A stretch of 64,000 nucleotides of DNA from Escherichia coli (GTDB lineage Bacteria; Pseudomonadota; Gammaproteobacteria; Enterobacterales; Enterobacteriaceae). The stretch is from NCBI RefSeq assembly GCF_003334255.1, contig NZ_QOWU01000013.1. One strand, written 5' to 3'. Below, one piece after another: positions 1 to 50,803 of this stretch. The notes under the pieces were generated by a model. It searched no databases. It worked only from the letters and a program-made list of their open reading frames with translations, and had not been told where the DNA came from. The stretch's first letter is position 1. Each line of letters opens with the position of its first letter. The translations under genes and the position numbers were made by a program.

Positions 1-76
1 ACGCGAGGCATCGTCTTAACGAGGCACCGAGGCGTCGCATTCTTCAGATGGTTCAACCCTTAAGTTAGCGCTTATG
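1..76. mobile_element. IS186 terminal segment (element continues beyond window start)
   Basis: Sequence ends ...GGTTCAACCCTTAAGTTAGCGCTTATG near 76, matching my recollection of the IS186 terminal inverted repeat; in K-12 an IS186 copy abuts the 3' side of dnaJ. Boundary is +/- a few bp; no transposase ORF lies inside the window. Confidence 0.55.
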
Positions 77-167
77 GGAGTGATCCCCGCCACTTTACAG
101 GTGCTCGCATATCTTCAACGCACCCTATTTTTACCCAGGCCTGCCCACGGGCAGGCTTTTGGGGAGG

Positions 168-1298
168 TTAGCGGGTCAGGTCGTCAAAAAACTTCTTCAC
201 ACCATCAAAGAAGCTCTTTGAGCGCGGGCTGTTGTGCTCGCCGGTTGGGCCACCGAAGCTTTCTTGCAGCTCTTGCAGCAGCTGTTTCTGCCTTTCGTTC
301 AGGCCTACCGGTGTTTCGACGACAACGCGGCACAGCAAATCACCCTGTGCGCCACCGCGGACAGACTTGACGCCTTTACCGCGCATACGGAATAGCTTAC
401 CGGTCTGGGTTTCGCCAGGCACTTTCAGTTTGACGCGACCATCAAGGGTCGGTACTTCGATTTCGCCACCCAGCGCCGCCATAGCGAAGTTGATCGGGAC
501 TTCGCAATACAGGTTGTTGCCTTCACGCTCGAAAATCGGGTGCTGTTTAACCTGAACCTGAACGTACAGATCGCCTGCCGGTGCGCCATGCTCGCCCGCT
601 TCACCTTCGCCCGCAAGACGGATGCGGTCTCCAGTGTCCACCCCTGCCGGGATTTTAACGGACAGCGTTTTGCTGCGCTCAACACGACCATGACCATGAC
701 ATTTGTTGCACGGATCTTTGATCAGCGTACCGCGGCCCTGACAGTGTGGACAGGTCTGCTGTACAGCGAAGAATCCCTGGCGCATCTGCACCTGACCAGA
801 ACCATGACAGGTCGGACAAGTCTGCGGCTGTGTACCTGGTTTTGCACCGCTACCGTGGCAAACGTCACACTCTTCCAGAGTCGGAATGCGGATCTCTTTG
901 GTCACGCCACGTACAGCTTCTTCGAGGGTGAGCTCCATGTTATAGCGTAAATCAGCACCGCGCGCCGCACGTTGACGACCACGTCCGCCGCCAAAAATAT
1001 CGCCGAAAACGTCACCAAAAATATCGCTGAAGTCTGCGCCGCCGCCAAAACCGCCGCCGCCCATGCCACCTTGCTCAAACGCAGCATGACCATACTGATC
1101 GTATGCCGCACGTTTTTGCGAGTCGGTCAGAACTTCATAAGCTTCCTTGATCTCTTTAAATTTCGCCTCGGCCTCTTTGTCACCCTGGTTACGGTCCGGG
1201 TGGTATTTCATGGCCAGGCGTTTGTAGGCCTTTCTGATTTCACGCTCTTCCGCTGTTTTGGAAACGCCTAAAATCTCGTAATAATCTTGCTTAGCCAT
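168..1298 (-). CDS. dnaJ: Chaperone DnaJ (Hsp40), 376 aa
   Basis: J-domain with HPD motif (KYHPDRN), Gly/Phe-rich linker, four CxxCxGxG zinc-finger repeats; start taken at [11 protein letters not shown] (ATG, window 1296-1298). ORF-track start at 1328 is an upstream GTG extension. Confidence 0.97.
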
Positions 1299-1386: not shown

Positions 1387-3303
1387 TTATTTTTTGTCTT
1401 TGACTTCTTCAAATTCAGCGTCGACAACATCGTCATCTTTCGCGTTGTTTGCAGAAGCATCAGCACCGGCAGTCTGCTGCTGGGCATGTTGCTGCTGGGC
1501 GATTTCCATCAGTTTCTGGGAAACCTGTGCCAGTTCCTGCATTTTCGCTTCGATAGCGGCTTTGTCTTCACCTTTCAGAGCAGTTTCCAGTGCAGTCAGC
1601 GCAGACTCGATAGCAGTTTTGTCGTCAGCCGGCAGTTTGTCGCCTGCTTCTTCAACCTGCTTACGGGTGCTGTGCAGCAGATGGTCGCCCTGGTTGCGAG
1701 TCTGTACCAGCTCTTCAAACTTACGGTCAGCTTCGGCGTTAGCTTCTGCGTCGCGTACCATTTTCTGGATTTCATCTTCGTTCAGACCAGAAGAAGCCTT
1801 GATGGTGATCTTCTGCTCTTTACCGCTGTTTTTATCTTTCGCGGAAACGTGCAGGATACCGTCAGCATCGATATCGAAGGTAACTTCGATCTGCGGCATG
1901 CCGCGCGGTGCCGGGTTGATACCATCTAGGTTGAACTGACCCAGAGATTTGTTATCAGCCGCACGTTTACGTTCACCCTGCAGCACATGGATGGTTACCG
2001 CAGACTGGTTGTCTTCAGCGGTAGAGAACACCTGGCTGTGCTTGGTCGGGATAGTGGTGTTTTTCGCGATCAGCGTCGTCATCACACCGCCCATGGTTTC
2101 GATACCCAGAGACAGCGGGGTAACGTCCAGCAGCAGTACGTCTTTTACGTCACCAGTCAGAACACCACCCTGAACAGCAGCACCGATTGCTACAGCTTCG
2201 TCCGGGTTAACGTCTTTACGCGGCTCTTTACCAAAGAACTCAGCAACTTTCTTCTGAACCATTGGCATACGAGTCTGACCACCAACGAGGATAACGTCGT
2301 CGATATCAGATACGGACAGGCCAGCGTCCTGCAGTGCAACTTTCAGCGGCTCAATGGAACGGTTTACCAGATCTTCAACCAGGCTTTCCAGTTTCGCACG
2401 AGTCACTTTGATGTTCATGTGTTTCGGACCGGTCGCGTCTGCAGTGATGTATGGCAGGTTAACGTCGGTCTGCTGAGCGGAAGACAGTTCGATTTTCGCT
2501 TTTTCTGCCGCTTCTTTCAGGCGCTGCATTGCCAGCGGATCGTTGCGCAGGTCAATGCCCTGATCTTTCTTGAATTCTTCAACCAGATAGTTGATCAGAC
2601 GGCTGTCGAAGTCTTCACCCCCCAGGTGGGTATCACCGTTGGTTGCCAGAACTTCGAAGGTTTTTTCGCCGTCAACTTCGTCGATTTCGATAATAGAAAT
2701 ATCGAAAGTACCACCACCCAGGTCATAAACCGCGATAGTACGGTTGCCAGTGCCTTTGTCCAGACCGTAAGCCAGCGCAGCTGCGGTCGGTTCGTTGATG
2801 ATACGTTTTACTTCCAGACCAGCGATACGGCCTGCGTCTTTGGTTGCCTGACGCTGAGCATCGTTAAAGTATGCCGGTACGGTGATAACAGCTTCAGTTA
2901 CCGGTTCACCCAGGTAATCTTCAGCGGTTTTCTTCATTTTTTTCAGCACTTCAGCAGAAATCTGCGGCGGTGCCATTTTCTGGCCTTTAACTTCGACCCA
3001 TGCGTCGCCGTTATCAGCAGCAATAATTTTGAACGGCATGATGGAAACATCACGCTGTACTTCTTCGTCCTGGAAGCGGCGACCAATCAGGCGTTTAATC
3101 GCAAACAGAGTGTTTTGCGGGTTCGTCACTGCCTGACGTTTAGCCGGCTGACCAACTAGAGTTTCACCATCCTGGGTATAGGCAATGATAGAAGGCGTGG
3201 TGCGATCGCCTTCGGCGTTCTCCAGCACGCGAGGAGTGGTGCCATCCATAATCGCTACACAAGAGTTGGTAGTACCCAGGTCGATACCAATTATTTTACC
3301 CAT
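1387..3303 (-). CDS. dnaK: Chaperone DnaK (Hsp70), 638 aa
   Basis: Full-length [20 protein letters not shown] and IDLGGGTFD Hsp70 signatures; 88-bp spacer to dnaJ, typical dnaKJ operon. Confidence 0.98.
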
Positions 3304-9793: not shown

Positions 9794-9905
9794 AATGCCG
9801 GATGCGGCGTGAACGCCTTATCCTGCCTACAAAAGCATGCAGATTCAATATATTGCAGAATTAACGTAGGCCTGATAAGACGCGCCAGCGTCGCATCAGG
9901 CGCTG
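9794..9905. repeat. REP (repetitive extragenic palindrome) pair
   Basis: TGCCGGATGCGGCGTGAACGCCTTATCC...CTAC and GTAGGCCTGATAAGACGCGCCAGCGTCGCATCAGGCG motifs in opposite orientation between convergent yaaA and yaaX. Confidence 0.75.
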
Positions 9906-15360: not shown

Positions 15361-15489
15361 TTTTAATTTACTCACGGCAGGTAACCAGTTCAGAAGCTGC
15401 TATCAGACACTCTTTTTTTAATCCACACAGAGACATATTGCCCGTTGCAGTCAGAATGAAAAGCTGAAAAATACTTACTAAGGCGTTTT

Positions 15490-16176
15490 TTATTTGGTGA
15501 TATTTTTTTCAATATCATGCAGCAAACGGTGCAACATTGCCGTGTCTCGTTGCTCTAAAAGCCCCAGGCGTTGTTGTAACCAGTCGACCAGTTTTATGTC
15601 ATCTGCCACTGCCAGAGTCGTCAGCAATGTCATGGCTCGTTCGCGTAAAGCTTGCAGTTGATGTTGGTCTGCCGTTGCATCACTTTTCGCCGGTTGTTGT
15701 ATTAATGTTGCTAATTGATAGCAATAGACCATCACCGCCTGCCCCAGATTGAGCGAAGGATAATCCGCCACCATCGGCACACCAGTAAGAACGTCAGCCA
15801 ACGCTAACTCTTCGTTAGTCAACCCGGAATCTTCGCGACCAAACACCAGCGCGGCATGGCTCATCCATGAAGATTTTTCCTCTAACAGCGGCACCAGTTC
15901 AACTGGCGTGGCGTAGTAATGATATTTCGCCCGACTGCGCGCAGTGGTGGCGACAGTGAAATCGACATCGTGTAACGATTCAGCCAATGTCGGGAAAACT
16001 TTAATATTATCAATAATATCACCAGATCCATGTGCGACCCAGCGGGTGGCTGGCTCCAGGTGTGCCTGACTATCGACAATCCGCAGATCGCTAAACCCCA
16101 TCGTTTTCATTGCCCGCGCCGCTGCCCCAATATTTTCTGCTCTGGCGGGTGCGACCAGAATAATCGTTATACGCAT
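15490..16176 (-). CDS. lasT: SpoU/TrmH-family RNA methyltransferase LasT (YjtD), 228 aa
   Basis: MRITIILVAPARAENIGAAARAMKTMGF N-terminus; ATG at 16174-16176. The ORF-track start is 7 codons upstream. Confidence 0.9.
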   Translation of the reverse strand: MRITIILVAPARAENIGAAARAMKTMGFSDLRIVDSQAHLEPATRWVAHGSGDIIDNIKVFPTLAESLHDVDFTVATTARSRAKYHYYATPVELVPLLEEKSSWMSHAALVFGREDSGLTNEELALADVLTGVPMVADYPSLNLGQAVMVYCYQLATLIQQPAKSDATADQHQLQALRERAMTLLTTLAVADDIKLVDWLQQRLGLLEQRDTAMLHRLLHDIEKNITK

Positions 16177-16575
16177 ATTGCCACTCTTCTTGATCAAATA
16201 ACCGCGAACCGGGTGATCACTGTCAACTTATTACGCGGTGCGAATTTACAAATTCTTAACGTAAGTCGCAGAAAAAGCCCTTTACTTAGCTTAAAAAAGG
16301 CTAAACTATTTCCTGACTGTACTAACGGTTGAGTTGTTAAAAAATGCTACATATCCTTCTGTTTACTTAGGATAATTTTATAAAAAATAAATCTCGACAA
16401 TTGGATTCACCACGTTTATTAGTTGTATGATGCAACTAGTTGGATTATTAAAATAATGTGACGAAAGCTAGCATTTAGATACGATGATTTCATCAAACTG
16501 TTAACGTGCTACAATTGAACTTGATATATGTCAACGAAGCGTAGTTTTATTGGGTGTCCGGCCCCTCTTAGCCTG

Positions 16576-16716
16576 TTATGTTGCTGTTAAAATGGTTAGG
16601 ATGACAGCCGTTTTTGACACTGTCGGGTCCTGAGGGAAAGTACCCACGACCAAGCTAATGATGTTGTTGACGTTGATGGAAAGTGCATCAAGAACGCAAT
16701 TACGTACTTTAGTCAT
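16576..16716 (-). CDS. yjjY: Small ORF YjjY, 46 aa (MTKVRNCVLDALSINVNNIISLVVGTFPQDPTVSKTAVILTILTAT)
   Basis: Translated by hand; corresponds to the annotated K-12 small ORF embedded antisense in the arcA upstream region. Evidence that it encodes a protein is weak. Confidence 0.4.
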   Translation of the reverse strand: MTKVRNCVLDALSINVNNIISLVVGTFPQDPTVSKTAVILTILTAT

Positions 16717-16811
16717 GTTACGCCGATCATGTTAATTTGCAGCATGCATCAGGCAGGTCAGGGACTTTTGTACTTCCTGTTTCGATTTAGTTGGCAATTT
16801 AGGTAGCAAAC

Positions 16812-42440: not shown

Positions 42441-42862
42441 TGCCGGATACGGCCTACGGTTCGGCACAGACTTGTAGGCCTGATAAGACGCGTCAAGCGT
42501 CGCATCAGGCATTGTGCGCCAACTGCCGGATGCGGCGCGAACGCCTTATCCGGCCTACGGTTCGGCACAAACCTGTAGGCATGATAAGACGCGACAAGCG
42601 TCGCATCAGGCATTATGCGCCGACTGCCGGATGCGGCGTGAACGCCTTATCCGGCCTACGGTTCGGCACAGACTTGTAGGCATGATAAGACGCGACAAGC
42701 GTCGCATCAGGCATTGTGCGCCAACTGCCGGATGCGGCGTGAACGCCTTATCCGGCCTACGGTTCGGCACAAACCTGTAGGCATGATAAGACGCGTTAAG
42801 CGTCGCATCAGGCATTGTGCGCCAACTGCCGGATGCGGCGTGAACGCCTTATCCGGCCTACG
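42441..42862. repeat. REP/BIME cluster: about four tandem 101-bp units
   Basis: Motif CTACGGTTCGGCACA recurs at 42455, 42556, 42657 and 42758 (period 101 bp); each unit holds two inverted REP palindromes. Confidence 0.9.
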
Positions 42863-50716: not shown

Positions 50717-50803
50717 GCGAAGGTGGCGGAATTGGTAGACGCGCTAGCTTCAGGTGTTAGTGTCCTTACGGACGTGGGGGTTCAAGTCCCCCCCCTCGCA
50801 CCA
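50717..50803 (+). tRNA. leuQ/P/V: tRNA-Leu (anticodon CAG), 87 nt, single copy
   Basis: GCGAAGGTGGCGGAATTGGTAGACGCGCTAGCTTCAGGTGTTAGTGTCCTTACGGACGTGGGGGTTCAAGTCCCCCCCCTCGCACCA: cloverleaf with long variable arm, anticodon loop TTCAGGT, encoded CCA end. Confidence 0.96.

Follow-up and report, generated by a model that had tools for sequence, protein, structure and literature searches.

Gene content and boundaries of the locus

The window, i.e. the whole stretch of 64,000 nucleotides that was analysed, is a segment of the Escherichia coli chromosome read in the reverse of the MG1655 numbering, with dnaJ and dnaK near its start, the thr operon beyond dnaK, and the sequence then continuing as far as tsr. 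On the basis of sequence identity, its very first bases are the right, transposase-distal end of IS186, a cut-and-paste insertion sequence of the IS4 family, which here lies between the convergent hokC/mokC and dnaJ genes (Table 1). This assignment arises from the comparison with the two ends of IS186A from MG1655: the right end agrees with positions 1 to 76 at each of the 76 bases, whereas the reverse complement of the left end agrees at 35 of 76, of which 23 belong to the terminal inverted repeat shared by both ends. Since the two ends of IS186 have only this 23-bp repeat in common, the informative part is the 53 bases internal to it (window 1-53), which match the right end of IS186A and not the left one. 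The left-end repeat, CATAAGCGCTAACTTAAGGGTTG, was seen at three of the fetched genome loci (L001, L003, and L004) as the partner of the repeat found in the window. Besides, out of 5426 complete E. coli genomes, 2144 contain the 76-mer formed by the first 76 bases, on chromosomes as well as on plasmids, with a median of three copies per carrier genome, and this multi-copy occurrence on both kinds of molecules marks it as a mobile repeat and not a chance match. The exact boundary of the element is uncertain by 1-3 bases, as the MG1655 record annotates 1345 bp whereas 1339 bp separate the 10-bp duplications.

Table 1. Features at the start of the window, with their positions in the window
Feature	Position	Strand	Basis or remark
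IS186 right (transposase-distal) end	1..76	+	76/76 identity to MG1655 IS186A; no transposase coding sequence
IS186 23-bp terminal inverted repeat, CAACCCTTAAGTTAGCGCTTATG	54..76		Perfect reverse complement of left-end CATAAGCGCTAACTTAAGGGTTG
Target-site duplication, right copy, 10 bp, GGAGTGATCC	77..86		Left copy in other genomes
Right arm of the split target palindrome, TCCCCGCC	84..91		Left arm beyond the element, outside the window
Candidate fbi (fold-back-inhibition) element of the hokC mRNA, CTTCAACGCACCC	113..125	+	Predicted 5' pairing; severed from hokC
GC-rich hairpin (138-157), then TTTT (157-160)	138..160	+	Folding; probable hokC mRNA terminator
dnaJ	168..1298 (stop codon 168-170)	-	ORF list and RefSeq annotation of identical genomes; convergent with IS186 transposase and hokC
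dnaK	1387..3303	-

The initial annotation of this stretch had already read the first approximately 76 bp as an IS186 terminus ending 91 bp from the dnaJ stop codon, and both points hold: the identity with the right end of IS186A is accompanied by the inverted repeat at 54-76, and the interval from the end of the element to the stop codon (77-167) counts exactly 91 bases. It had also considered that the orientation of the element could not be judged, which has to be revised. As window 1-53 matches the right end only, the orientation is readable, the transposase gene being directed towards dnaJ, i.e. the reverse of IS186A in K-12.

The complete element in near-identical genomes

The proposal, made along with that annotation, that extension upstream should reveal the transposase and a matching inverted repeat was borne out, as all fetched genomes matching the window start carry an upstream IS186 with both of them. 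Two genomes are most instructive in this respect, namely 720632, which is identical to the window over the first 4.4 kb, and G1/2, identical over the first 25 kb, a stretch for which G1/2, G6/7, and G8 are the best matches. In these two genomes, IS186 is complete, with a length of 1339 bp, perfect 23-bp inverted repeats, and an IS4-family transposase of 370 amino acids that scores 133 bits with NF033592, the IS4-family model of NCBIfam (cut-off 115). The transposase gene is on the + strand, and its stop codon precedes window base 1 by 96 bases; the window is therefore devoid of any coding sequence of the element. On the far side of the element lie hokC/mokC, coding for a type I toxin, with the hokC stop codon 22 bases from the left end of IS186.

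No genome of the collection matches the whole window exactly, the best one, G1/2, differing by 3 bases and a 236-bp deletion, and it is from such near-identical genomes that the IS186 copy of the window's own genome is presumed to be complete. One may wonder whether the source genome contains instead a remnant, be it a copy with an internal deletion, one split by a different insertion sequence, or a lone end. Such a case does occur in PF9285, which is identical to the window over the first 25 kb, flanks included, and whose IS186 is about 187 bp shorter due to an internal deletion, with a frameshifted transposase gene; in addition, IS150 or IS1 is annotated inside the span at the hokC-dnaJ site in some genomes. 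A remnant is nevertheless very unlikely, given that the best-matching fetched genomes, 720632 and G1/2, have intact copies and that a query joining the element to its two flanks is covered to 80% or more in 914 genomes.

Target site and duplication

The 10 bp that follow the element in the window, GGAGTGATCC, also precede its left end at five fetched loci (L001, L004, L007, L008, and L010) and in MG1655, and are present as a single copy in unoccupied genomes. When the element and one copy of this repeat are removed in silico, the resulting sequence, GGCGGGGAGTGATCCCCGCC, forms a perfect 8-bp GC-rich stem closed by a 4-base loop, with a folding energy of -18.5 kcal/mol (z -4.2). This intact form is found as such in 3815 of the 5426 genomes, including JP538 (NZ_AP025180.1). 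The target is hence a GC-rich palindrome of 20 bp, GGCGGGGA-GTGA-TCCCCGCC, which lies some 20 bases past the hokC stop codon and holds the element in its loop. With its short target duplication, the site has the form of the IS186 target consensus, GGGG-N6-CCCC. An affinity of IS186 for GC-rich sequence is described in the literature (PMC3903273).

Elsewhere in the 64 kb, the GGGG-N6/7-CCCC motif occurs only once more, as GGGGTTCAAGTCCCC at window 50777-50791, within a tRNA-Leu gene (50717-50803). This tRNA-Leu(CAG) gene is single in the window, compared to three tandem copies (leuVPQ) in G1/2 and in most of the other genomes listed, and the window is 236 bp shorter than G1/2 at this place, which would fit a collapse of the array, either through recombination between copies or during assembly. 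The laboratory strains ME8067 and MC1061 and the clinical strain N18-04097 show this one-copy state with 100% identity, the coordinates of the latter being offset by 176 bp with respect to the window.

Distribution of the site states in the population

The hokC-dnaJ site was surveyed in the 5426 complete E. coli genomes with queries of 2739 bp, in which the element has 700 bases of flank on either side. The window orientation was detected in 914 genomes (about 17%), the K-12 orientation in 671 (about 12%), and an unoccupied site in 3815 (about 70%), the three states together totalling 5400 genomes. These queries replaced a first survey with 201-bp junction queries, which returned 975, 838, and 3815, a total larger than 5426; the over-count is probably due to IS186 copies lying beside similar GC-rich or hok-type flanks on plasmids.

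Other insertions are also encountered at this site. BKQWHE has an insert of about 1287 bp, MLI104K2 an unrelated one of about 700 bp to which the annotation assigns a hypothetical protein, and IS5, IS150, or IS1 is annotated within the matched span in some other genomes.

Origin of the two orientations

In 6 kb of flanking sequence, two main haplotypes can be distinguished, with about 65 base differences between them. Haplotype 1 is K-12-like, with no difference between MG1655 and the window-type genomes over the 6 kb. Within haplotype 2, ES5, in the window orientation, and S163-2, in the K-12 orientation, are separated by 2 bases over the same length. Both orientations are therefore present on each of the two haplotypes. 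A third flank haplotype, with other genes beyond hokC, contains an IS186 insertion as well.

Unoccupied relatives are available for both main haplotypes. For haplotype 2, there are at least 17 of them, with an identical sequence over 1.6 kb. On the K-12-like haplotype, JP538 is the only unoccupied genome found, and its flanks are identical to those of the window over 2737 and 4800 bases, i.e. no difference in 7.5 kb; it could be either an ancestral unoccupied relative or the product of a precise excision. Like K-12, JP538 also has an IS1A copy and the truncated fimbrial gene beside nhaR.

The occurrence of both orientations on two haplotypes, together with unoccupied genomes having identical flanks, points to repeated insertion into a hot spot. 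The window allele would accordingly stem from an independent event in which IS186 entered this hot spot while it was vacant, the site being open to both orientations of the element, as the population data suggest. Such behaviour is known for IS186 from the lon promoter, where it enters a single site in either orientation (PMC3045373). An assembly artefact was also considered to account for the difference in orientation and was rejected, since the reads at the junctions should extend past the 23-bp repeat and since each state is represented by hundreds of independent assemblies.

Another scenario would be that a K-12-type IS186A was flipped in place by recombination between its perfect 23-bp inverted repeats, an event that would invert the interior of the element and keep the repeats and the duplication unchanged. 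This fits the comparison between MG1655 and the window-type genomes, in which the 6 kb of flank, the 1339-bp element, and the duplication are all identical and the orientation alone differs, and it also fits the presence of a single unoccupied genome on the K-12-like haplotype. However, an independent insertion in the other orientation would yield exactly the same sequence, JP538 does provide the K-12-like haplotype in the unoccupied state, and haplotype 2 contains both orientations along with common, identical unoccupied genomes. Moreover, 23 bp is at the lower limit for homologous recombination, which argues against a flip on such short repeats. Given in addition the lon case mentioned above (PMC3045373), in which one site is entered in either orientation, inversion in place seems quite improbable.

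A still more speculative idea, to which we give very little credit, is that the two orientations interconvert within lineages, by in-place inversion via the 23-bp repeats or by precise excision followed by re-insertion, and so constitute a slow switch. If this were true, the switch would couple the transposase gene either to hokC transcription, in the window orientation, or to heat-inducible dnaKJ read-through, in the K-12 orientation, thereby changing transposition rates. Taken together, the data are very probably best explained by a full-length IS186 inserted at the hokC-dnaJ hot spot, inverted compared to K-12, and arisen by independent insertion.

Predicted consequences for dnaKJ

As judged from the sequence, dnaJ itself and the 91 bases that follow it are untouched by the insertion. 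In these 91 bases (77-167), a terminator scan of the minus strand finds no dnaJ-sense hairpin with a U-run behind it; the hairpin at 138-157, when read in this sense, has CUGGGUAAAAAU as its tail and thus no U-run. In the unoccupied JP538, the base-by-base comparison shows the same 91 bases, and the scan of the unoccupied locus finds no better terminator in the dnaJ sense. The lack of a dnaJ-sense terminator was therefore not created by the insertion. The hairpin that the insertion destroys is a second one, namely the target of IS186 itself. In case of read-through, dnaKJ transcripts would enter IS186 in antisense and would meet, about 550 bases inside the element, a terminator-like site of the minus strand consisting of GCCGGAAAGGGAGCTCCGGC then TTTTTTATTA.

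These data bear on the statement of the initial annotation that the insertion leaves the dnaKJ operon without an obvious intrinsic terminator. It is correct in that none is found in the dnaJ sense within 77-167, but the bases concerned are unaltered with regard to JP538 and a strong hairpin is present at 138-157. One could still propose that the insertion matters mainly through the loss of the dnaKJ terminator and the resulting read-through from dnaKJ into IS186. In favour of this proposal, the interval contains no canonical dnaJ-sense terminator, and the insertion splits an 8-bp GC stem that has GUUGCUCUU after it in the dnaJ sense. Nevertheless, the hairpin nearest to dnaJ (138-157) is intact within 91 bases that are the same in JP538, neither hairpin has a proper dnaJ-sense U-run with or without the insertion, and about 29% of genomes are occupied in one orientation or the other, so that no strong cost is evident. 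This proposal is therefore unlikely.

Predicted consequences for the hokC mRNA

The main consequence of the insertion would rather fall on hokC, as suggested by a folding model. A hokC mRNA of 402 nt was reconstructed from the unoccupied locus and folded at minimum energy. In this fold, a 3' element corresponding to window 113-125, CUUCAACGCACCC, is base-paired with the 5' end of the mRNA, GGGUGCUUGAGG; the duplex energy of this 5'-3' pairing is not discriminating, 422 of 500 shuffled sequences being as good. The GC hairpin located just past the stop codon is the IS186 target, and a terminal hairpin with a U-run is found at window 138-160. The hairpin at 138-157 has a predicted energy of -22.2 kcal/mol on the + strand and of -19.0 kcal/mol on the - strand, with a core of -15.5 kcal/mol; it was not listed by the terminator consensus scan, which needs five T, as its + strand tail contains four. 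The hairpin and the T-run at 138-160 are probably the terminator of the hokC mRNA. At gathering thresholds, Rfam gives no match in window 1-170. Further in the window, Rfam places four tandem naRNA4 copies at 42477-42858, which have a spacing of 101 bp and are about 95% alike, as well as a solitary naRNA4 copy at 28342-28420, and a borderline match to the ES036 (CssrF) sRNA at 9831-9873, between yaaA and yaaX (38.7 bits for a threshold of 37.6).

The predicted organisation is similar to that of hok/sok-type type I toxin-antitoxin mRNAs, characterised by a 5' tac element, a 3' fbi element, and a terminal hairpin, since the unoccupied hokC fold has a candidate 5'-3' pairing, the GC hairpin after the stop codon, and the terminal hairpin with its U-run. 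The gef/hokC locus has been described with such a hok/sok-type architecture, and the IS186 located downstream of it has been proposed to disrupt both the fbi element and the processing of the mRNA (PMC3562002). Unlike a full mRNA of this type, the window would hold an orphaned 3' part only (87-160), hokC being located beyond the element and outside the window. From the fold and the published description (PMC3562002), window 87-160 is most readily interpreted as a 3' end of the hokC mRNA that has been orphaned. The insertion would thereby cut the hokC mRNA from its 3' fold-back element and terminator, leaving both stranded at these positions.

As for the transcripts themselves, no terminator-like site was found on the + strand in the 78 bases that separate, in the window orientation, the hokC stop codon from the transposase start. 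Transcription of hokC is hence predicted to enter the transposase gene, and hokC transcripts would run into it in sense according to sequence and folding.

Comparison with other IS186 sites

An IS186 copy downstream of hokC/gef and adjoining dnaJ is an ordinary, long-familiar feature of K-12, and the preference of the element for GC-rich sites is established. The present insertion is like IS186A of MG1655 (insL1, annotated at 15387-16731 between dnaJ and hokC) in terms of its 1339 bp, its site, its GGAGTGATCC duplication, and its flanks, all of which are identical. It is unlike IS186A in its direction: the K-12 copy has its left end and the start of its transposase gene on the dnaJ side, whereas the copy in the window has its right end there and its transposase gene runs in the same direction as hokC.

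In the same line, IS186B of MG1655 (insL2) is located 18 bases past hokE, within the loop of the homologous GC hairpin, with GCGGGGAGTAATCC/CATAAG as its junction, the slash marking the point of insertion, and its transposase gene reads in the same direction as hokE, an arrangement shared with the window-type hokC locus. The differences are that IS186B sits at another hok paralogue and another chromosomal position, and that the loop sequence differs by one base. On plasmid pPSS-08-2_2 (NZ_AP027681.1), IS186 is found 22 bases after a Hok/Gef gene, in the homologous hairpin GGCGGGGAGAGATCCCCGCC and with the duplication GGAGAGATCC; its junction, GGCGGGGAGAGATCC/CATAAG, is at the homologous loop position. 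The hairpin following hok genes appears to be a recurrent target of IS186. Among other plasmid matches, IS186 stands beside genes annotated as hokD.

The lon promoter offers a further point of comparison. According to PMC3045373, which cites work from 2001, a single GC-rich site is there subject to repeated insertion in either orientation, as at the hokC-dnaJ site. The nature of the target is not the same, since the lon site is a promoter in which insertion abolishes lon expression (PMC3045373), whereas the target studied here is a 3' untranslated hairpin between two convergent genes.

Implications

The orientation of IS186 in this strain being the reverse of that in the reference strain, the coordinates and the strand of insL1 should not be transferred from K-12. 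As the site is polymorphic and has been hit repeatedly, its occupation by IS186 is a poor marker of common descent. Finally, the effect to look for would concern the hokC toxin locus and not dnaKJ.
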